Positions 1 to 9,798 of a stretch of DNA of 9,798 nt are shown here, in pieces. Where the stretch lies: contig CAYXAY010000022.1 of the NCBI GenBank assembly GCA_964463155.1, forward strand, positions 1 to 9,798, given 5' to 3'. The stretch is from an uncultured archaeon (GTDB lineage: Archaea; Iainarchaeota; Iainarchaeia; Iainarchaeales; CSSED10-239). The translations under genes were made by a program, and so were the position numbers. The first letter of the stretch is position 1; each line of letters opens with the position of its first letter. The notes beneath the pieces were generated by a model that worked only from the letters and a program-made list of their open reading frames with translations, was not told the DNA's origin and did not search any database.

Positions 1-842
1 GTTCTAGATTATAGGTTAATACTTTTAGGATAACCTGCTTTTGCTGGTTATCCTTTGTTGTTGCAGTTACAAATCCGCCGGTTGTTCGCTTTATTGCAGA
101 GATTACTGATTCAACAACCGATCTTTTATTATAAGATTTAGTTCTAAATCTCCTCATTGCTTTTATTCTGTTATCAGACACCGTCTGATAACTCGGAAGT
201 TGCCTAAATGGGATATGCACAGCAATATTGTTGTCCCAACAATCTTCTCGCAACTCTCTAGAATCATAACCCTTGTCTGCTAAAGCACGAACAATATTGT
301 GTTTTAGTTTGTCAAGCAGGGGAATAAATGATTGGGTATCATTTTTACGATATGGGTTAACTATTGTGTTTAGTACTAGTTTTGTGTTGATATTAACGAT
401 AATGCTAGTTTGTGTAAAGTTTTTATATGATGGTCTAATTTCACATCTATTCAGATAGTAACCTGTAGGATTAACATTTGTAAATCCGGTGGGATCAACA
501 GCAACAACCATGTTTTTGCTGTTGATTAACTTATGGCAAGCCATTACTAGTTTTTGTAAAATGTCTTTACTTATTCTGCTTACACCCTTTTGCAGAGTTG
601 TGAAGTGTGGTAGTTTATGGATACCAAGCAATCTTAAAACATTTATGTCGTTTAACAATTCCGTTAAACGACGAAAGAAAAGTTGTGCCTTTCTTTTAAA
701 ATCAACAAATATACATAATAAAGTTATTGTAAAGCTTGTTAGAGTACTTAGAAAAATGAAAAGGTAACCTAACTTCACCAAAAACGCGTTCAACTTGCTT
801 ATAGAAACTATTAAAAGATATTGGTTGTAATATATTAATCAT
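1..842 (-). mobile_element. IS4/IS5-superfamily DDE transposase gene. The 3' end runs off the left edge, and the N-terminal 46 codons are in a different frame from the catalytic body (apparent +1 shift near 700-715).
   Basis: My own minus-strand translation; not in the ORF track because the frame has no stop inside the window. Frame A: ATG at 842..840, MINILQPISFNSFYKQVERVFGEVRLPFHFSKYSNKLYNNFIMYIC, stop at 702..704. Frame B is open from about 709 down to base 2: FVDFKRKAQLFFRRLTELLNDINVLRLLGIHKLPHFTTLQKGVSRI...VVAVDPTGF...LADKGYDS...YNKRSVVESVISAIKR...LKVLTYNLE. The DDE triad is visible: D codon 494..496, D codon 275..277, E codon 110..112, with K/R 7-8 residues after the E. This pattern is typical of IS4/IS5-type transposases. 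Confidence 0.8.
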
Positions 843-850
843 GAAAGATC

Positions 851-884
851 AATAATATATATGTCGCAAGACATATATATTATT
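851..884. repeat. Perfect palindrome or hairpin: 15-bp stem aataatatatatgtc, 4-nt loop gcaa, then gacatatatattatt. It lies 9 nt upstream of the transposase ATG.
   Basis: Read directly from the sequence. The two arms are exact reverse complements. Function unknown (IS-end structure, transposase promoter/operator, or terminator of the upstream ATPase gene). Confidence 0.85.
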
Positions 885-906
885 TATGTTACAAATAAGG
901 AGTTAG

Positions 907-924
907 AGGGTTTCTACAAACCCT
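907..924. repeat. Second small hairpin: agggttt / ctac / aaaccct.
   Basis: A 7-bp perfect stem seen directly. It sits between the ATPase stop (966) and the transposase start (842). Candidate IS terminus or terminator; it cannot be assigned without the other IS end. Confidence 0.5.
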
Positions 925-965
925 AAATGTCCGAGTTTTTGTGCAATAATGTTTGCATTTTATGA

Positions 966-2213
966 TTATATAAAATCTCTCCAAACTAAATAGTATTTTA
1001 TTAAATTAATATTTTCTTTATTTGCATCAAAGTTTATTATTGATCCATCTCTTATAATTAAATATTTTTTGTATAATTTAAGTTTCTGAACTTGCTTTAA
1101 TTTAAAGTTATTAATGTCTTGTAAGGTGATTTGATTTCTGTATTTTACTTCAACACCAATTTTTTTAGAAGACTTACTATCGTGCCAAATAAAATCTATT
1201 TCATTTACGCCTCTATTATCCCAAAAATATTCTGCATTTATTTGAAAAGCAACATCTGTTTCTATAAGTTTGCTTTCATTAGGAGAATCATCTATAAAAT
1301 AAATTAATGTTGTACAAAAGGGATAAAATTTTTTAGATTTTTGTTCGGTTTTTCTTGCATTATTTGAAAAATGATATATCTTTCTTATTAGACCACTATT
1401 ACACAAATACGCAAGGTATTTAGTAATATCTTTCCTATTTGTGCCCAATTCTTTTGATAGGTCAGTATTATTTATTATTTGCCCTGGATCTTTTGAAATT
1501 ATTCTAAATATACTGTATAGTATTTCTGTATTTACATTTTTTACATATTTTTCAGAATCTTCATATATTACTTTTTTAATGATATTTAACATATATTGTT
1601 TTGTATCTATAGAATAATCTAATGCTAATTCAGGATATTGTCTTTTTAAGTAACTTTTATAGTGATTTAAAAAAACATCATCTATTTTATTATCTATTAC
1701 TGTTGCATTATTTGAAAAAAACAAATATTCTTTGAAATTTAATGGACCAATAAAATATTCAAATATTCTCCCCGCAAGAGATTCTTTTTTACTTGATCTT
1801 AAAGTAGACCCACTAACCACAATCTTTATATTTATATAATTATCATAAATTATCTTTATTTTTTCTTGCCAATTGTCAAGTTTTTGAATCTCATCAAAAA
1901 ACAAATAAACTTTTCCTCCATTTAATGATTTATTTCTAATAATTTCATATTCTTTAATTAGTTTAAATATATCTTCTTTAAAATCATCAAATGAAAAATA
2001 TAATATATCTTCTGGAGCTACATTATTATCTATCAAGTTTTTTATTAATTGCTTAATCAAAACAGATTTACCAACTCTTCTTGGACCTTCAATAGATAAT
2101 ATAAACTTATTTTCGATTGCGTTTTCAAGAATCGTGTAAATATCTCTTTTTATTGGATACTCTTTTAATTCTCCTCGCCATTGTTTGTTTTGAAAAAATA
2201 TCATTTCTTTCAT
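966..2213 (-). CDS. AAA+ ATPase of the AAA_14 + DUF4143 type (COG1373-like), with a central wHTH-like segment and a C-terminal PD-(D/E)xK-like motif.
   Basis: 415-aa ORF with ATG start and TAA stop. Walker A is GPRRVGKS (DNA 2064..2087) and Walker B-like is VYLFFDEIQ. The segment TDLSKELGTNRKDITKYLAYLCNSGLIRKI looks like a wHTH. The C-terminal NEIDFIWHD...IGVEVKY fits a D...E-x-K nuclease-fold signature. As far as I recall, DUF4143 belongs to the PD-(D/E)xK clan. Confidence 0.85.
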   Translation of the reverse strand: MKEMIFFQNKQWRGELKEYPIKRDIYTILENAIENKFILSIEGPRRVGKSVLIKQLIKNLIDNNVAPEDILYFSFDDFKEDIFKLIKEYEIIRNKSLNGGKVYLFFDEIQKLDNWQEKIKIIYDNYINIKIVVSGSTLRSSKKESLAGRIFEYFIGPLNFKEYLFFSNNATVIDNKIDDVFLNHYKSYLKRQYPELALDYSIDTKQYMLNIIKKVIYEDSEKYVKNVNTEILYSIFRIISKDPGQIINNTDLSKELGTNRKDITKYLAYLCNSGLIRKIYHFSNNARKTEQKSKKFYPFCTTLIYFIDDSPNESKLIETDVAFQINAEYFWDNRGVNEIDFIWHDSKSSKKIGVEVKYRNQITLQDINNFKLKQVQKLKLYKKYLIIRDGSIINFDANKENINLIKYYLVWRDFI

Positions 2214-2352
2214 TCATTATCACTTAAATATTATATATTACGAAACATTTATAAACCGTTGCCAAACTTTCCACTATTTTGGTATAGCGTAGTTCCTAAA
2301 TGCCACCCATTTTGGCACAGGCCAGAACCAAACATTCTACTCTTTCTGTGTA

Positions 2353-2910
2353 TTATTTCTTTTTTGTTTGATATTTTATTTGTTGCTTCTTTGCTTTCTC
2401 ACACAATTTTATTATCTTCTTGTCTGTAAATGGATTAATTGCACGTATACCGGGGATCTTGTTGAAGTCTTTTGTGTTTTCTGTATAGATTAGATGAATG
2501 TTGTTATCAAGCATTGTTTGTGCTAAGAGGGCATCAAAGAAATGAACGCCTGTTAAATAGGATAGATCTACGGCTTGCATAATTGTATCAGAAGTATAGG
2601 ACAAAATGGTAAATAAATTTGAAATATTTTTTAAACGATTGTTTAATTCTGTCGGATTATCAAAACATTTTAATTTATTTTTGGTAACATTTACAAATTC
2701 AACAAGATTTTGAATACTTATATATCCATATTTTAGATTGCCTTCTGAAAGTAAATTAAAATAATTTCGTATCTTTTCTGACTGGTCTTTGGTGTTTACA
2801 TTTGTATAAACTGTTACAAATATATTTGTGTCTATTAGATAAGATTCTTGAGAATCGAAATTCAATTTATCATAATTTAAATATAAATTTTCTGTAGTCA
2901 TTTGCGTCAC
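2353..2910 (-). CDS. vapC: PIN-domain protein, VapC-like toxin, with a Lys-rich C-terminal tail.
   Basis: 185-aa ORF. PIN acidic signature: YLIDTNIF near the N-terminus, FFDALLAQTML, and IYTENTKDF near the C-terminus. The listed start at 2910 is GTG; an ATG at 2901 (MTTENLY...) is an equally plausible start. It lies 3 nt downstream of the RHH gene on the same strand. Confidence 0.75.
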   Translation of the reverse strand: MTQMTTENLYLNYDKLNFDSQESYLIDTNIFVTVYTNVNTKDQSEKIRNYFNLLSEGNLKYGYISIQNLVEFVNVTKNKLKCFDNPTELNNRLKNISNLFTILSYTSDTIMQAVDLSYLTGVHFFDALLAQTMLDNNIHLIYTENTKDFNKIPGIRAINPFTDKKIIKLCEKAKKQQIKYQTKKK

Positions 2911-2913
2911 ATT

Positions 2914-3153
2914 TTATCTTTCATATATCTCTGCTCTAGTCTTAGGCATTTTCCCGTTTTTTCCGACCTTTAAAGGATTAGCCATCAAATATTTTAAATG
3001 CTTAATTGCGTCTAATCTTTTATTTTCTTTTTCAGATATGGTTTCAACAATTGTTTTACTTATAGCGTTTTTCCTGTCACCATACTTGGCTTTTGCCATT
3101 TCTCTTAAAAGCTTTTCAGATTTGTCATCCATTGATATTGTTATTACTCCCAT
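2914..3153 (-). CDS. vapB: Small ribbon-helix-helix (CopG/VapB-like) antitoxin candidate.
   Basis: 79-aa ORF with ATG start. The N-terminal GVITISMDDKSEKLLREMAK fits a beta-strand plus helix RHH start. It lies immediately upstream of the PIN gene. GAGGTG lies 7 nt upstream of the ATG. Confidence 0.65.
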   Translation of the reverse strand: MGVITISMDDKSEKLLREMAKAKYGDRKNAISKTIVETISEKENKRLDAIKHLKYLMANPLKVGKNGKMPKTRAEIYER

Positions 3154-3160
3154 TTTAGCA

Positions 3161-3166
3161 CACCTC
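3161..3166 (-). promoter_or_regulatory. Shine-Dalgarno-like GAGGTG for the RHH/PIN operon.
   Basis: The plus strand reads cacctc at 3161..3166, which is GAGGTG on the minus strand, 7 nt before the ATG at 3153. It is complementary to the conserved 16S 3' end. Confidence 0.4.
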
Positions 3167-3236
3167 TTTTCCGTTTAATGATTATTAAAAAGAAAGAACA
3201 AACAATTTTTAAACCTTGCCATTTTAAGTAATTTAA

Positions 3237-3277
3237 TATTTAAATAGGCAATTATTTAAATAGTTAATTATTTAATA
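3237..3277. promoter_or_regulatory. Three phased copies (16-bp spacing) of an AT palindrome: tatttaaata at 3237..3246 and 3253..3262, and a degenerate tatttaata at 3269..3277.
   Basis: Read directly. tatttaaata is its own reverse complement. The flanking context (c/t)aattatttaa is also repeated. The copies lie 85-125 nt upstream of the RHH gene start and downstream of the pilin-like gene. Candidate operator or TATA cluster, but low complexity in an AT-rich genome weakens this. Confidence 0.3.
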
Positions 3278-3341
3278 AAATACAATAAAAAAGAGCGATG
3301 ACTATCAAAGTTGTGTCCAAGAAATAGTGTAAACTATAACT

Positions 3342-3373
3342 AAAAAAATCAAAATTAAACCAAAAAATAAAAA
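3342..3373 (-). terminator. Oligo-T tracts (T5, T6, T7 on the minus strand) downstream of the pilin-like gene.
   Basis: Plus-strand A-runs at 3369..3373, 3362..3367 and 3342..3348 lie 15-46 nt after the stop at 3388. Archaeal RNA polymerase terminates at oligo-T stretches. Confidence 0.45.
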
Positions 3374-3387
3374 GAAGAAAAACAACC

Positions 3388-3894
3388 TCAATTGACTGTG
3401 CAGTTGTTTAATATTATTGACTCTTTAGGGCATGTTCCATTAGTTAGAATCATATGATATATGCTGTTTGGATTTAATGTGGTTAAAAGATTTTCATCTC
3501 CTATTGTGTATGTAAAATTAGCGTCAGTAGAAAGATTAGTCATTTCTCCCTTGCTTACTACCTTTTCAAATCTCCCCGCAACTACTAAGTCTTCTTCACT
3601 ACCATTCTTTCCTTGTATTGTCAGTACAAGATTAAATACTCTCAAATTAGAATCATTTCTAAAAACAAGACTTACCTTGTTTCCAGAAGAACTATAAATA
3701 TTACAAGAATCAACAATAAACTTAGCATCCATACAAGAAAGATCACTTGCCTGCTTTAATTCATCTGTTGCCTGGTCCATTCTTTCCTTTGAAGAATTTT
3801 TAAGCCACGCAAAGAAGATTCCTGCTAAAATCACGGTCACAACAATGATTAATGTAACAACAATTACCTCTGATGCCCCTTTTTGTGTATTCAT
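3388..3894 (-). CDS. Secreted or surface protein with an archaeal class III (type IV prepilin-like) signal peptide; pilin-like.
   Basis: 168 aa. The N-terminus MNTQKG/ASEVIVVTLIIVVTVILAGIFFAW has a short charged head, a K-G-A motif and a hydrophobic helix, as in PibD/FlaK-type substrates. The mature part has 4 Cys and 7 N-x-S/T sequons (NSS, NDS, NGS, NLS, NFT, NGT, NCT). Its ATG overlaps the antiporter TGA (ATGA at 3891..3894). Confidence 0.6.
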   Translation of the reverse strand: MNTQKGASEVIVVTLIIVVTVILAGIFFAWLKNSSKERMDQATDELKQASDLSCMDAKFIVDSCNIYSSSGNKVSLVFRNDSNLRVFNLVLTIQGKNGSEEDLVVAGRFEKVVSKGEMTNLSTDANFTYTIGDENLLTTLNPNSIYHMILTNGTCPKESIILNNCTVN

Positions 3895-5251: not shown

Positions 5252-5271
5252 AAATTCACGGATAAGTGGTT

Positions 5272-5978
5272 ATGGGAAAAAACAAAAATTTTAATAAGAA
5301 GGTAATAGCAATTGTCACACAAATAGTCAATGGAATGGCAAACAAGAAAAAAGGTTCTTTTTTTATAATCACAAAATCATTTCTGACAAATATGAAAGAC
5401 TTTATCCTGATCTTTTTTCTAAACAAAATGTAAGCATATTCAAAAAGGAAACACAAACTCTTCTTATTGCTCTTCTAGAGGTTGATGGGGCAATTGTTAT
5501 TGATAACCACGGCCACATAGTTGACTATGGCGTCAAAGTAAAAAAAACAAAAATACTTTTCGGACATGGAACAAGACATTCTGCTGCTCGTGGAATCTCC
5601 TGTGTAAAAAATGTTCTGTCAATTATATCTTCTGAAGAAGATGGCAAAGTCAGATTATTTAGAAACGGAGAACAGGTTGCAGAGATAAACCCAAAGACTG
5701 GAAAATCCAAGAAATTCTTTGAAAGAATTGGAGAACTATTTTCAAAGTCTGAGCTTCATGTTGCTACTGCTGGCGGTGTTGCCTCACTATTGCTTCGCTT
5801 GAATCCTTTGCTTTCAGGAATTGTCTTTACTGGTTCTTGGGTCGTCACAAAATATGGAATAGTAAGCTTGAAATATTTCTTACATACAGGAAAGCTTACT
5901 ATTGAAAAGAAACATAAAGAAATCAAAAGAAAAATAAAAAAAATACAGAAAAAACATGGCCAGTCAACAAAACAATAG
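5272..5978 (+). pseudogene. DAC (DisA_N) domain protein, a diadenylate cyclase-like c-di-AMP synthase candidate. It is interrupted by a -1 frame change around 5358-5380 (pseudogene or homopolymer sequencing error).
   Basis: My own translation. Frame 1 runs from ATG 5272: MGKNKNFNKKVIAIVTQIVNGMANKKKGSFFIITKS... and stops at 5431. The frame starting at positions divisible by 3 is open 5298..5978 with no ATG/GTG/TTG before 5790, which is why the track shows only 5790..5978. It reads ...ISDKYERLYPDLFSKQNVSIFKKETQTLLIALLEVDGAIVIDNHGHIVDYGVKVKKTKILFGHGTRHSAARGISCVKNVLSIISSEEDGKVRLFRNGEQVAEI.... The DGA motif, the GTRHxAA motif and the SEE(D/T)G segment are DAC-domain hallmarks. The C-terminus has a hydrophobic stretch (VATAGGVASLLLRLNPLLSGIVFTGSWVV) and a Lys-rich tail. 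Confidence 0.75.
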
Positions 5979-6390
5979 CACAACGGAAATTTCAAAAGGA
6001 ATAGTCCAGTCATTTATAAGAATCGCAATGAGAGTTATTCTATTTGGAATTATAATTCCAGGAATAATCTACATTGGCATTAGATTCTTAGAAATTGCTT
6101 TTGGATTTGGCTGGAAAGAACAATTAACTTACCAGTATATGGGTTATATCTATACTGTTGGTTATGCTTTGTTTTTGGTGTATATGGCAATAAGAAACCA
6201 ACTAAGCACAACCTTGTATTATTCAATAGGTTGGATTTTTGGTTTGTTATTAATGTTTAGGCTTGGAATATTTACTACCAGAATGTTTTTTGGTTTTTTG
6301 TTTGTGCCAGTGATATTTGTAATCATTAAGATCTTGTATCTAATTTTTAAAAAAAAGGAAAAAAAAGTTAAAAGAAATTATAGCCCTTAG
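5956..6390 (+). CDS. Small integral membrane protein (about 4 TM helices), function unknown.
   Basis: 144-aa ORF with ATG start. It has four long hydrophobic segments and a KKKEKKVKR tail. It overlaps the DAC gene 3' end by 23 nt, and converges with the repeat-protein gene with a 23-nt overlap. Confidence 0.5.
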   Translation: MASQQNNSTTEISKGIVQSFIRIAMRVILFGIIIPGIIYIGIRFLEIAFGFGWKEQLTYQYMGYIYTVGYALFLVYMAIRNQLSTTLYYSIGWIFGLLLMFRLGIFTTRMFFGFLFVPVIFVIIKILYLIFKKKEKKVKRNYSP

Positions 6391-8326
6391 AGTGAAGTCT
6401 TACATATCTTTGCATTCTTCTTTGGCTTACTCCAAGTTCTGCTAGTTCTTTGTAACCATATCCTGCTTTTATCAATTGCTCTGTGTTATAGCCAGCTTTA
6501 TGTAGTTCTTTTGCAGAAAAGCCAAGTGGCTTTAGTTCTTTAGCTGAATATCTAATCACTCTTAATTGTCTTGCATTTTGTCCTAATTTCCAAACATCTT
6601 TTGCAGAATAACCAGCAAAATATAGTTCTCTTGGTAAAAATCCAACAGCATACAGTTCCTTTGCAGAATAGCCAGCATCTCTTAAAGACGCTGGTGAAAA
6701 ACCAAGTGGCTTTAGGTCTTTAGCAGGATATGCTTTTCTTAAATCATATGCACTATAGCCAGCGTCTCTCATTTCTTTTGCTGTGTAGCCGGCTTTTGCA
6801 AGTTCTTCAACATCAATATCTAGGTCATTCAGTTCTTTTGCTGAATAGCCTGCATCTTTAATCATTTTTAATTCAAAACCCGCAAAATAAAGTTCTCTTG
6901 CAGTAAACCCAAGATTATGGAATTGTCTTGCTGAATAGCCGATACCAAGTAGTTCTTTTGCTGAATAGCCCGCGTCTCTTAATTCATAAAGGTTATAGCC
7001 TGCAAGATGAATCTCCACAGCAGAAAATCCGGCTTTTTTAAGTTCTTTAATTGTACAGCCTTTTGAGATAAATTCTGGTAGTTCACAACCAATAAGTCTT
7101 ATTTCATTTAATGGACAGCCGGCATCCATCAATTGTGAGCAAAAAAGTCCTGCTTTTGATAATTCTTTTGTAGTATAGCCTGCAATATAAAGTTCTGCGG
7201 GAGAATAACCAAAATCCAATAGTTCCTTTGCAGAATAATTAAGATATCTTAGTTCTTCTAGATGGAATTCTTCTTTTTTTTCCTTTTCTGTTAATAGTTC
7301 CCTTAAATCAAATATTTCTTTTAGTTTGTAGCCTGCTTCTTTTAGTTCTTTAATTGAGTATCCTGCTTGGTACATGTCTTTTGCAGAAATGCCAGCAATC
7401 CTAAATTGGTTTGCAGTAACTCCGACTGGTGCTAATTCTTTTATTCTGAATCCTTCTTTTAAAAGGTCTGCAATTGTTATGCCGTCGTCCAACAATTCCT
7501 GTATATTTATTTTTCTTCTGTCAATTAATTCTAAAAGAGTGTGTCCTGCAAGCAATAGTTCGCCTATGGTGTATACTTTTTTTAGGTCTTCTAAAGTATA
7601 TCCTGCATCAAGCAATTGCCTTGCCTTGTAGCCTGCAATCTTTAATTTCTTTACTGGAAAATTGTGTTTGTATAGTTCCTTTGCTGGATATTGGGCATAA
7701 GAAACAACATCTTCGTTAAATTTTGTGTTTAACAGTTCCTTAACAGAATAACCTGTATCTCTTAGTTCCTTAGCAGAATAGCCTGCTCTCTTAAGCTCAA
7801 TCAAAGAAAATTTTGCTTTTTTTAATTCCATTGCTGAAAAGCCTAGAGTAAATAAATATTTTGAACCAAATTTCATTTTCTTTAGTCTTGTAACAGTATA
7901 TTTTGCTTTTTTTAATTTAAAGTGATTGTAACCTAATTGTAATAATTTCTTTGCTGGCGTTTTCTTTTTTAGAAGTTCTGAAATAGTTAATTTCTTCTTT
8001 ATTATTTTCTTTTTTACTGGTTTTGATTTTATTGTTTTTTTCTTTGGTTTAATTAAAGAAAAGCCAAGTTCTTTTAGTTCTGGATTAGTAAAGCCCGCTG
8101 TTTTTAAATCCTTAATTGTGTATTTCATGCCTTCAAAGATTGTGTGGTTTGCCTTTACTTTTTTTAAGTCTTTAGCATATCTTTCTAAACTTATTTTTTT
8201 CTTTTTTAGATGAGAAATATCTATTGGAGAAATTATAAATCTCTTTGGAGAATTAAGCTGTTTATTTAATAATTCAACTACTTCTTTCTTTTTAAGTGTT
8301 TGAGTTATCTTTTTCATATATTTCAC
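6368..8326 (-). CDS. Large tandem-repeat protein: a Lys-rich N-terminal region followed by about 50 in-register decapeptide repeats (x-x-A-G-Y/F-S-A-K-E-L). No family recognised.
   Basis: 652-aa uninterrupted ORF in a region of 30-nt DNA periodicity. There is no signal peptide or TM segment. The listed start at 8326 is GTG, and the ATG at 8317 (MKKITQ...) is a likely alternative. Example run: RDAGYSAKEL LGIGYSARQF HNLGFTAREL YFAGFELKMI KDAGYSAKEL. Confidence 0.8.
   Translation of the reverse strand: MKYMKKITQTLKKKEVVELLNKQLNSPKRFIISPIDISHLKKKKISLERYAKDLKKVKANHTIFEGMKYTIKDLKTAGFTNPELKELGFSLIKPKKKTIKSKPVKKKIIKKKLTISELLKKKTPAKKLLQLGYNHFKLKKAKYTVTRLKKMKFGSKYLFTLGFSAMELKKAKFSLIELKRAGYSAKELRDTGYSVKELLNTKFNEDVVSYAQYPAKELYKHNFPVKKLKIAGYKARQLLDAGYTLEDLKKVYTIGELLLAGHTLLELIDRRKINIQELLDDGITIADLLKEGFRIKELAPVGVTANQFRIAGISAKDMYQAGYSIKELKEAGYKLKEIFDLRELLTEKEKKEEFHLEELRYLNYSAKELLDFGYSPAELYIAGYTTKELSKAGLFCSQLMDAGCPLNEIRLIGCELPEFISKGCTIKELKKAGFSAVEIHLAGYNLYELRDAGYSAKELLGIGYSARQFHNLGFTARELYFAGFELKMIKDAGYSAKELNDLDIDVEELAKAGYTAKEMRDAGYSAYDLRKAYPAKDLKPLGFSPASLRDAGYSAKELYAVGFLPRELYFAGYSAKDVWKLGQNARQLRVIRYSAKELKPLGFSAKELHKAGYNTEQLIKAGYGYKELAELGVSQRRMQRYVRLHSKGYNFF
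6413..7942 (-). repeat. 30-nt periodic coding repeat array (the decapeptide repeats), with some near-identical DNA units.
   Basis: For example, the 20-mer agttcttttgctgaatagcc occurs exactly at 6831..6850 and 6951..6970 (120 nt apart, or 4 units). Related versions occur at about 6654, 6927, 7221 and 7765. The boundaries are approximate. Confidence 0.8.
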
Positions 8327-8857: not shown

Positions 8858-9067
8858 TTATTTTATATAAATAGTTGATGCTTTTTTTAATCTGGTCATT
8901 ATGGCTTTGCCTAACTTGTCTTCGTCAATTCCTTGAGCAATAATTATATCTATTTTGTCTTTATCAAATTCTCTAAAATAAGAAAATAGTTTTTGTGCAT
9001 AGATTTTTGTATCAGAATCTAAATACCTAACATTATTTTCTTTTAAATCAAAACTATAAGAAAGCAT
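8858..9067 (-). CDS. sua5: C-terminal (Sua5-domain) fragment of the threonylcarbamoyl-AMP synthase gene, displaced into another frame.
   Basis: The 69-aa ORF ...YAQKLFSYFREFDKDKIDIIIAQGIDEDKLGKAIMTRLKKAS matches the conserved Sua5 C-terminal end (L..LR.fD....D.I.......GlG.AimnRL.KAa). This frame is open upstream to 9124, so it overlaps the end of the main ORF. Confidence 0.7.
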   Translation of the reverse strand: MLSYSFDLKENNVRYLDSDTKIYAQKLFSYFREFDKDKIDIIIAQGIDEDKLGKAIMTRLKKASTIYIK

Positions 9068-9759
9068 ACCTTTTTTTTCTTTGGATTTTTCTTCTTTATT
9101 AATTCTATTTCTCTCAAGAAATTTCTATTATAGTCAATTAAGATAACTTTTGCTTTTGGGGAATAATGTGTGTATTTCATTCCTGGGGCTTTTGGTTTAT
9201 CTCCATTTTTAGAATTTAAATTAGAAAATTCAACTTCTCCAATAACTTCTTCAATATCTTCTTTAGTAATGTATCCTGGTCGTAATATTGTTGAAGTATT
9301 AGAAGTAAAGTCAATAACTGTTGACTCAAGGTCAACTTTACAACATCCCACATCAATGATCATTGAAATCTTGTTATTAAGATCTTCAATGACATGTTTT
9401 GCTGTTGTTGGGCTTGGTTTTCCTGAAATATTTGCACTTGGTGCAACAATTGGAACTTTTGATTGTTTTATTAATTCTAAAGCAATTTTGTTGTTAGGCA
9501 TTCTTATTGCTACACTGTCCAGTCCTGCTGTAACAATGTCTGAAACAACTTTTTTCTTTTTAAGAACTATTGTTAAAGGTCCAGGCCAAAACTTTTTTGT
9601 TAATTTTTGCGCAGATTTTGGGAAATCTTTTGCAAGTTTTTTAATCTGAGAGATATCAGAAATGTGAGCAATTAATGGATTATCTTGTGGTCTACCTTTA
9701 ACTTTAAATATTTCTGAAACTGCCAAAGGATTAAAAGCATTTGCCCCAAGGCCATAAAC
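9043..9759 (-). CDS. sua5: L-threonylcarbamoyladenylate synthase (Sua5/YrdC/TsaC family), main body. The 5' end is truncated by a fold-back and the 3' end is frameshifted.
   Basis: Reads VYGLGANAFNPLAVSEIFKVKGRPQDNPLIAH...WPGPLTIVL...IRMP...VAPSANISGKPSPTTA...PGMKYTHYSP. The KGRP..NPLI and SAN.SG motifs are family hallmarks. The track start at 9726 is an internal TTG. The frame is open to 9771, but upstream of VYGLG it reads EKKQ instead of the expected PTET. Confidence 0.85.
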   Translation of the reverse strand, partial: VYGLGANAFNPLAVSEIFKVKGRPQDNPLIAHISDISQIKKLAKDFPKSAQKLTKKFWPGPLTIVLKKKKVVSDIVTAGLDSVAIRMPNNKIALELIKQSKVPIVAPSANISGKPSPTTAKHVIEDLNNKISMIIDVGCCKVDLESTVIDFTSNTSTILRPGYITKEDIEEVIGEVEFSNLNSKNGDKPKAPGMKYTHYSPKAKVILIDYNRNFLREIELIKKKNPKKKKVCFLIVLI

Positions 9760-9798
9760 TTGTTTCTTTTCCTACAGAAACGGTTTATGGCCTTGGGG
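9744..9798. repeat. Perfect 16-bp inverted repeat (ccccaaggccataaac at 9744..9759 and gtttatggccttgggg at 9783..9798) around a 23-nt spacer, reaching the last base of the window.
   Basis: Read directly. The plus strand at 9759..9798 encodes LVSFPTETVYGLG, the missing Sua5 N-terminal motif, but in the opposite orientation to the gene body. Confidence 0.9.

Follow-up and report, generated by a model that had tools for sequence, protein, structure and literature searches.

Genes in which an ATPase is fused to a PD-(D/E)xK domain are catalogued as the defence candidate PDC-S01, which ranks fourth in abundance among prokaryotic candidate systems; Archaea account for 9,986 copies, and validation is pending (PMC12988326). 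The PDCs as a group have been reported as enriched in DPANN (PMC12988326). The PDC set comprises 145 untested candidates embedded in BREX, DISARM and type I restriction-modification (RM) loci (preprint 10.1101/2024.01.29.577857), and PDC-S01 goes undiscussed in the main text of the Payne 2024 preprint. The corresponding family, DUF4143/COG1373, has been placed in the PD-(D/E)xK superfamily with its function given as "unknown" (PMC3424549), and COG1373 is among the genes shared nearly identically between genera in the gut microbiota (PMC10782964). We analysed a 9,798-nt stretch of DNA from an uncultured archaeon of the Iainarchaeales (contig CAYXAY010000022.1, assembly GCA_964463155.1; the whole stretch is hereafter the window). 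In it, a PDC-S01-type ATPase gene lies between a VapBC-like pair, formed by a candidate ribbon-helix-helix (RHH) antitoxin and a PIN toxin, and an insertion sequence (IS) probably of the IS5 family. We consider it likely that three independent modules meet here and that they do not make up one system.

The window is AT-rich (G+C 20-37%), and the relatives closest to it in the databases bear annotations as Iainarchaeum, Diapherotrites and Micrarchaeota archaea, all DPANN lineages. A preliminary description, made from the letters of the sequence, had reported four co-oriented minus-strand genes, a PIN-ATPase gap of 139 nt and the TATA-like strings tttataaa at 2248-2255 and ttatatatta at 2231-2240. 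The genes and both strings were found at the coordinates given there, and the gap was exact (2214-2352). Gene content, motif conservation, predicted folds, presence or absence across lineages and the discontinuity in DNA identity could be observed directly. The features on which the argument depends are the following, with loci of relatives given as L numbers.

1..838, minus strand: reading frame of the putative IS5-family DDE transposase, with its C-terminus beyond the left window edge (DDE_Tnp_1 and IS5_2 matches)
703..843, minus strand: 46-codon ATG-initiated open reading frame (ORF) in a frame other than that of the transposase (six-frame translation)
844..923, minus strand: upstream end of the IS (homology to L001, L090 and L091 ends at 924-928)
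924..965, minus strand: conserved 3′ tail of the ATPase cassette (kept in L001, L090 and L091)
966..2213, minus strand: ATPase-nuclease of 415 aa, PDC-S01 / COG1373 type, its nuclease activity predicted (Pfam, PADLOC, alignment, AlphaFold2 model)
2214..2285, minus strand: the ATPase's own promoter region (inside the block of 95-100% identity with L001 and L090)
2288..2320, minus strand: window-specific insertion of 33 bp (pairwise alignments with L001, L090 and L091)
2353..2910, minus strand: predicted VapC-like PIN toxin of the long subfamily, 185 aa (Pfam, alignment, profile match to VapC structures)
2914..3153, minus strand: RHH-like antitoxin candidate, 79 aa (alignment of 30 homologues, transitive RHH matches)
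3154..3280, minus strand: promoter region of the toxin-antitoxin pair (TATA-like element and AT-rich palindromes)

The ATPase gene and the toxin-antitoxin pair differed sharply in their divergence from the same relatives. The ATPase gene of the window was 97.5% identical in DNA to that of L001 and 98.2% identical to that of L090, and the latter two were 97.9% identical to each other. For the RHH gene the corresponding values of the window were 87.5% and 84.1%, and for the PIN gene 85.0% and 81.6%. Flanking genes ranged from 73 to 91% overall (74-91% between the window and L001, 74-81% between the window and L090), and the only flank exceeding 80% to L001 was the 301-nt partial gene TM120. A sliding comparison of 60 columns located a block of 95-100% identity from window position ~2280 to ~925, with the same ends in all three pairs. 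This block of ~1.36 kb spans the promoter region, the ATPase gene and a 42-nt 3′ tail ending in GGACA, which reads TAATCATAAAATGYAAAYATTATTRCACARAAAnTYGGACA on the minus strand. Directly past GGACA, L001, L090 and L091 diverge from each other. Selection on the protein cannot explain the block, since nucleotide identity in the ATPase equals amino-acid identity and reaches into non-coding DNA. A chimeric assembly is also unlikely, as the junctions recur in independent assemblies (NCBI, ENA, JGI and Logan). Thus, the discontinuity points to recent horizontal exchange of a discrete ~1.36-kb cassette. A scan of metagenomes with the pattern of the ATPase 5′ untranslated region returned two contigs, both already among the loci compared.

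Loci of relatives were found by looking up contigs that encode PIN homologues. The RHH-PIN pair was syntenic in eight related lineages, five without the ATPase and three with it, and the genes recurring around the pair encoded Sua5, a decapeptide-repeat protein, a pilin-like protein and a Na+/H+ exchanger. The gene following PIN varied. It was the ATPase in the window, L001-L004 and L090/L091. L086, L087/L088 and L103-L105 instead had a conserved basic protein of 113-126 aa after PIN (41-59% mutual identity), with a small transmembrane protein next in L086 and L103-L105. The family of this transmembrane protein also supplied the gene behind the ATPase in L001 and L090; in the window the IS stood there. 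In L106, PIN was followed by a 117-aa protein with no detectable similarity to the 113-126-aa protein and then by a small transmembrane protein; the 117-aa protein is possibly a distant relative of the ~113-aa one. In L107/L108 the next gene was on the opposite strand. No trace of the ~113-aa gene was left in the window. An ATPase 82% identical to that of the window was found in L094, on a contig too short upstream to show its context.

The ~113-aa protein gene lies at L086:5647-5988, L087:5716-6096 and L103:4626-4967. Its product had no Pfam or NCBIfam match, and the transmembrane protein had no NCBIfam match. The ~113-aa protein may be the third component of an uncharacterised three-gene toxin-antitoxin variant. 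As it follows PIN in three ATPase-less lineages, and possibly in a fourth by way of the distant relative, it may merit attention.

The preliminary description had regarded an ATPase-nuclease, a toxin-antitoxin pair and an IS as the typical make-up of defence or mobilome islands. We examined 80 loci, one per species, encoding ATPase relatives, in which ORFs were called and searched with hidden Markov models (HMMs) built from the PIN and RHH alignments. No PIN or RHH gene adjoined the ATPase relative at any of the 80 loci, and PIN genes were present in L031 only, ~3-4 kb from the ATPase. The two upstream neighbours (134 proteins) contained 180 Pfam families, none of them in more than three members; PIN accounted for at most one of the 134, and VAPB_antitox was not listed among families with at least two members. 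The two downstream neighbours (129 proteins, 132 Pfam families) included PIN twice, VAPB_antitox twice and Polbeta/MNT three to four times. No Pfam family occurred in more than four members among the neighbours of ATPase relatives. The closest relatives outside the 98% group (64-68% identity) were located beside a Glu/Gln-tRNA synthetase or other unrelated genes. Enrichment of the neighbourhood in other genomes, the point on which that description had made its proposal depend, was thus not found at these 80 loci, and the RHH-PIN pair itself lacked the ATPase in five of eight lineages. The proposed combination falls with this result, while the individual domain calls stand.

The IS was likewise confined to the window. 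It was absent from all nine related loci extending downstream of the ATPase or PIN gene. The ATPase-bearing L001-L004 and L090/L091 lacked it, and so did the ATPase-less relatives. Homology to every ATPase-bearing relative ends at window position 924-928, and comparison with relatives placed the IS terminus at ~918-923, reading ...GGACATTTAG|GGTTTGTAGAAACCC on the minus strand. This strain alone carries the insertion, which lies a few bases past the cassette tail. The earlier call of a DDE transposase was borne out by Pfam DDE_Tnp_1 (3.5e-16) and by transpos_IS5_2 as the best NCBIfam model (8e-37, 127 bits against a cut-off of 140 bits, with the protein cut by the window edge). No in-frame ATG was present in the transposase reading frame, the nearest ATG-initiated ORF being that at 703-843 in another frame. 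Fusing this ORF to the transposase raised the IS5_2 score from 127 to 134 bits and moved the start of the match from profile position 43 to 32, so the ORF is possibly the frameshifted N-terminus of the transposase. An inverted repeat of 24 nt (842-865 / 870-893) lies at and upstream of the start of this ORF. The element resembles IS5 in its DDE_Tnp_1 domain and in its coverage of IS5_2 profile positions 32/43-287 of 289. It differs in scoring below the curated cut-off, in a possibly shifted frame and in having one IS end outside the window.

Our preferred reading assigns a separate history to each of the three modules. The RHH-PIN pair would be a VapBC-type type II toxin-antitoxin system and a long-term resident of the locus in an Iainarchaeia/Diapherotrites-like DPANN clade. 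An RHH dimer would repress the operon and the RHH C-terminal part would block the PIN RNase; were the antitoxin lost, PIN would cleave RNA. The second module would be a self-contained ATPase cassette of ~1.36 kb (TATA/Shine-Dalgarno promoter, palindrome, gene and 42-nt tail), recently placed downstream of PIN by horizontal transfer or recombination, in a slot that in most relatives appears to hold the ~113-aa basic protein. Nucleotide-dependent DNA binding or oligomerisation by an ORC/STAND-like module may license cleavage of DNA by the C-terminal nuclease, with invading DNA as the most plausible target. Last, and in this strain only, the IS5-family element would have landed a few bases downstream of the cassette. 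The biochemical activities, the defence role and any regulation in this scheme are what we infer for the genes.

The mobility of the cassette could have another cause. The ATPase gene may be a selfish mobile gene that spreads in a homing-like manner by means of its winged helix-turn-helix (wHTH) and PD-(D/E)xK nuclease, and that does not serve host defence. A discrete 1.36-kb block of ~98% identity with identical ends, set in flanks of 73-91%, is compatible with this explanation, as is the replacement of another gene at one slot. The neighbours of the family are extremely heterogeneous, tandem paralogues occur, identical upstream palindromes are found in different phyla, and COG1373 is among the genes flagged as horizontally shared (PMC10782964). 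However, neither a target-site duplication nor terminal repeats nor an empty-site sequence could be made out, and viral contigs seldom carry the family (5 loci in 2.9 million contigs). A defence gene exchanged by homologous recombination through conserved flanks predicts the same pattern equally well. We also know of no homing nuclease with the architecture of this ATPase. We therefore regard a selfish origin as unlikely. A broader proposal would be that PDC-S01-type genes travel as minimal autonomous cassettes of ~1.4 kb without a dedicated recombinase, overwriting resident genes at particular slots. Such cassettes might combine the ATPase-nuclease gene with its promoter, a palindromic operator and a short tail that is conserved, and might move in a homing-like way by their own wHTH-guided nuclease. 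We hold this to be improbable; if true, the fourth most common prokaryotic "defence candidate" would be partly a selfish element.

The ATPase itself conformed to the PDC-S01 class over its full length. It matched Pfam AAA_14 (PF13173; 3.7e-32, residues 37-164) and DUF4143 (PF13635; 1.4e-14, residues 218-359), in this order in one polypeptide. A PADLOC check, which had been suggested earlier, returned PDC-S01 model PDLC04787 at 2.1e-47 (residues 20-394 against profile positions 10-392 of 412), and six more PDC-S01 models also matched. The domain order is an AAA+ core, a helical lid, a wHTH (~229-298) and a PD-(D/E)xK domain (~300-415), with Walker A GPRRVGKS at residues 43-50 and Walker B DE at 107-108. 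Among 42 aligned homologues sharing 33-82% identity with the window protein, G43, R45, R46, G48 and K49 of Walker A and D107-E108 of Walker B were invariant. So were E318, E338-x-D340 and E355-x-K357, which is the pattern expected of a PD-(D/E)xK active site; E318, D340, E355 and K357 stayed invariant in a separate alignment of the C-terminal domain. The peptide EIDFIW...IGVEVKY (NEIDFIWHDSKSSKKIGVEVKY), which had first drawn attention to a nuclease, was found at residues 337-358. An exact database look-up of the window ATPase gave no match, and the 98% identical P0001 served as its stand-in. Two or three ATPase paralogues in tandem or closely set were seen in some genomes (L025:610-4548; also L052, L059, L084 and L020).

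The full-length AlphaFold2 model (mean predicted local distance difference test score, pLDDT, 93.8) showed a P-loop core followed by a helical lid and a winged helix, and ended in an alpha-beta-beta-beta-alpha-beta domain at the C-terminus. Its Foldseek matches, at E values of 1e-8 to 1e-6, were ORC4, Cdc6/Orc1, RuvB, RFC and the STAND proteins CED-4, Apaf-1 and NLRP. As these are dominated by the NTPase-plus-winged-helix module and are silent on the C-terminus, residues 296-415 were modelled separately (pLDDT 89), giving a helix at 18-29, strands at 34-38, 42-49 and 56-62, a helix at 69-76 and a strand at 87-92. Matches of this domain in the PDB were almost uniformly of the restriction-endonuclease fold and included MspJI, AspBHI, the RPB5 N-domain, Bax1, VC1899, FokI, Avs4 and LlaBIII, as well as EcoT38I, HamA, McrC, Hjc and BamHI. 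Sequence searches of the PDB with the full ATPase and with the C-terminal domain profile returned nothing. The fusion of an NTPase, a wHTH and a PD-(D/E)xK-like domain proposed at the outset was thus upheld by motifs invariant in 42 homologues and by a C-terminal model that weakly matches nuclease folds. Alignment and models together suggest a single-polypeptide AAA+/winged-helix/PD-(D/E)xK protein of the PDC-S01 class with predicted nuclease activity.

Like other PDC-S01 members, the window ATPase is a single gene with the same domain order, the same invariant nuclease motif and a full-length HMM match, and it comes from a group in which the class is common (Archaea and DPANN). It differs in lying neither within nor beside an RM, BREX or CRISPR locus and in sitting downstream of a VapBC-like pair. 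It shares with Avs3/Avs4, Hachiman HamA, McrBC and type ISP proteins an NTPase, helical lid and winged helix coupled to an effector of the restriction-endonuclease fold; Avs4, HamA, McrC and LlaBIII were among the structural matches of its C-terminal domain, and CED-4, Apaf-1 and NLRP among those of the full-length model. However, it lacks a sensor repeat domain, carries its predicted nuclease at the C-terminus, is only 415 aa long and has no detectable sequence similarity to these proteins. We make no claim that it belongs to these families.

The same structural matches could also fit a cellular factor in DNA transactions or regulation (ORC/Cdc6-like, acting in repair, replication restart or transcription control) with no relation to defence or mobility. 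ORC4, Cdc6/Orc1, RuvB and RFC were the best matches of the full-length model, Hjc and Bax1 were among those of the nuclease domain, and many ATPase relatives stand beside housekeeping genes such as those for aminoacyl-tRNA synthetases. A core function is nevertheless a poor fit to a gene that is patchy even among close relatives, was recently transferred, occurs as tandem paralogues and belongs to a family that PADLOC derived from genes within BREX, DISARM and type I RM loci. We regard this explanation as unlikely.

The ATPase has an apparent promoter of its own, with a Shine-Dalgarno-like GTGAT ~6 nt before the ATG and a TATA box, TTTATAAAT, at 2248-2256. An imperfect palindrome, CCAAA-N11-TTTGG (2262-2282), abuts the B recognition element (BRE) and TATA box. 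The promoter stretch TTTGGCAACGGTTTATAAAT...GTGATAATGAATG lies within the conserved block, and its conservation together with the gene in L001 and L090 (95-100% identity) agrees with the separate promoter suggested earlier and supports the ATPase as an independent transcription unit. The same type of palindrome was present upstream of 68%-identical ATPase relatives in unrelated contexts, and the 33-bp insertion at 2288-2320 carries a degenerate extra copy of the motif CCAAAAT.GTGG...TTTGG. The exact CCAAA-N-TTTGG palindrome was dropped as a family-wide operator, since it was found at 2 of 77 loci, those of the closest relatives only. Over these 77 loci a generic palindrome score was modestly higher upstream of ATPase relatives than in control upstream regions (8.7 vs 7.7, p = 2e-4). 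Autoregulation of the ATPase through its winged helix is only an idea.

Near-identical palindromes, ACATATTATTWAATAATATGT and TTAACCTAGAATCGAATCTAGGTTAA, were seen upstream of ATPase homologues in L027, L028, L039 and L041, and also in L044, L065 and L074. The groups concerned are Methanosarcinales, Woesearchaeota, Aenigmatarchaeota, Micrarchaeota and Thermoplasmatota. Their occurrence across phyla hints that the upstream region was transferred together with the ATPase gene.

The motif GGCAA-N-GGTTTAWAAAT occurs at the RHH promoter, the ATPase promoter and the unrelated gene TM120. This motif, and with it the TATA-proximal half of the palindrome, is a generic promoter feature of the genome and is no evidence for control of the ATPase by the toxin-antitoxin pair. 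The TTTGGCA-TATA similarity was rejected on the same ground as a sign of shared regulation.

The PIN protein of the pair has 185 aa from its GTG start; from an alternative ATG at 2901, where the 100% identical database protein P0121 begins, it would have 182 aa. It matched Pfam PF01850 at 2.9e-8, and the profile of its family matched solved VapC structures, with 7by2_B at 8.9e-9. Conservation of its acidic residues, on which the original PIN call had been made to depend, was confirmed by the quartet D27, E71, D126 and E144, invariant in 39 aligned sequences. Its length, described earlier as atypical, proved to be a real property: a conserved N-terminal extension of ~23 aa and a conserved basic tail of ~30 aa (TDKKIxRLCEKAKKQ) are common to a subfamily of 176-195 aa. 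The conserved basic tail of this long subfamily may merit attention.

The evidence that the antitoxin candidate is an RHH protein was indirect. The stop codon of the RHH-like gene lies 3 nt before the PIN GTG, and the pairing was kept in all relatives. The N-terminus MGVITISMDxxSEKLLRxMAKxKYGxxKxAISKTI was invariant or nearly so in 30 homologues, and 15 of these 30 close homologues gave weak DUF6290 matches. A profile search of 1.84 billion representative proteins recovered 104 relatives. In the resulting alignment of 105 sequences, which includes the window protein, Pfam RHH_6 matched 27 (best 9.5e-6) and RHH_1, ParD and MatP_C gave single matches. The broader profile matched 2k6l_A in the PDB at E = 0.024. 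Judged from these profiles, the 79-aa protein is likely to be an RHH protein. The earlier antitoxin call thus stands as far as transitive homology and the 3-nt adjacency to PIN carry it, and failed to gain a direct Pfam match. The putative promoter of the pair has a TATA-like TTTAAAAAT at ~3206-3214 and overlapping AT-rich palindromes at 3223-3275, which in very AT-rich DNA could be due to chance.

The pair resembles VapBC in having a small upstream protein of probable DNA-binding type, a gap of 3 nt and a PIN protein with a D-E-D-E/D acidic quartet whose profile matches VapC structures. It differs in three respects. The PIN subfamily, at 176-195 aa, has an N-terminal extension and a basic tail absent from classical VapC of ~130 aa; the antitoxin candidate matches no curated VapB family directly; and the pair is syntenic across lineages, not sporadic. 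Set against L090:5001-5540 and L001:9326-9907, the PIN gene of the window (2353-2910) is also a mosaic. In the 3′ half and basic tail the lineages are almost identical, DNA identity drops to 48-63% over ~2600-2850, and the subfamily as a whole has two allelic forms. Such a pattern suggests that recombination has taken place within the gene. A protein of 233 aa annotated as Fic family (P0143) has 81% identity with 42% of the PIN protein and may be a fusion or a recombinant.

Several observations weigh against the interpretation of the region as three independent modules, or against its parts. The order RHH-PIN-ATPase was the same in all three ATPase-bearing lineages, so a functional interaction within the clade is possible. 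No recombinase was seen at the cassette, and a look by eye and a repeat search for direct repeats or target duplications beside it gave no convincing case. The window RHH-like protein itself had no significant Pfam match, and its RHH support is transitive. Foldseek matches of the nuclease domain were weak (best E 7e-3, none at or below 1e-3), and no measured activity of PDC-S01 was found in the literature. Apparent frameshifts in Sua5, the diadenylate cyclase (DAC) gene and the transposase mean that fine details of the sequence may hold errors. That the pair and the ATPase work together as a single three-gene defence system, in which the ATPase senses infection and releases or cooperates with PIN, or the RHH protein regulates the ATPase promoter, is nonetheless very improbable: gene order and orientation are constant in the ATPase-bearing lineages, the RHH and ATPase promoters share a motif and ATPase-plus-PIN pairs such as HEC-03 are among validated or candidate defence systems (preprint 10.1101/2024.01.29.577857), but the two parts have different histories (ATPase ~98% vs toxin-antitoxin 82-87% DNA identity), five of eight lineages have the pair without the ATPase, no PIN or RHH gene adjoins the ATPase relatives of 80 other species, the shared motif is also at the unrelated TM120, and the HEC-03 ATPase is an ABC ATPase, not AAA_14.

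The components of the three-module junction are all catalogued already (VapBC-like pairs, PDC-S01/COG1373 and IS5) and do not constitute a new kind of system. As a natural case, the locus illustrates cleanly a PDC-S01 gene that behaves like a discrete cassette exchanged recently in DPANN archaea, with defined ends and an alternative allele in the same slot. Since PDC-S01 is very abundant and untested, this example could guide constructs for first functional tests. It also corrects a tempting inference, as adjacency to a toxin-antitoxin pair and an IS does not amount to a functional island.

Scans for Rfam families, tRNAs and bacterial promoters and terminators gave nothing relevant. Outside the three modules, a frameshift within an A8 run at ~9045-9065 breaks the Sua5/TsaC2 gene (8858-9798, minus strand), which also has an in-frame stop near 9770; either the assembly is in error here or a t6A gene that is normally essential has become a pseudogene. 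The DAC gene (5266-5980, plus strand) has a frameshift near 5325-5391, owing to which it is missing from the ORF list of the window; it is intact in L001 and L090. From these two frameshifts the assembly may carry indel errors, which are as likely an explanation as true pseudogenes. The gap between the pilin-like gene and RHH (window 3154-3894) is variable. It is empty in the window and L090, and contains genes of 287 aa and 464 aa (NlpC/P60) in L001 (6121-9096) and of 302 aa and 867 aa in L086 (519-4747). The Na+/H+ exchanger is represented by two paralogues in L001 and by one in the window. The 652-aa protein encoded at 6368-8326 (minus strand) is built of Pfam "Decapeptide" repeats over nearly its whole length (12 stretches, E 1e-157), and a decapeptide-repeat protein of 655-671 aa is kept beside the locus in relatives.

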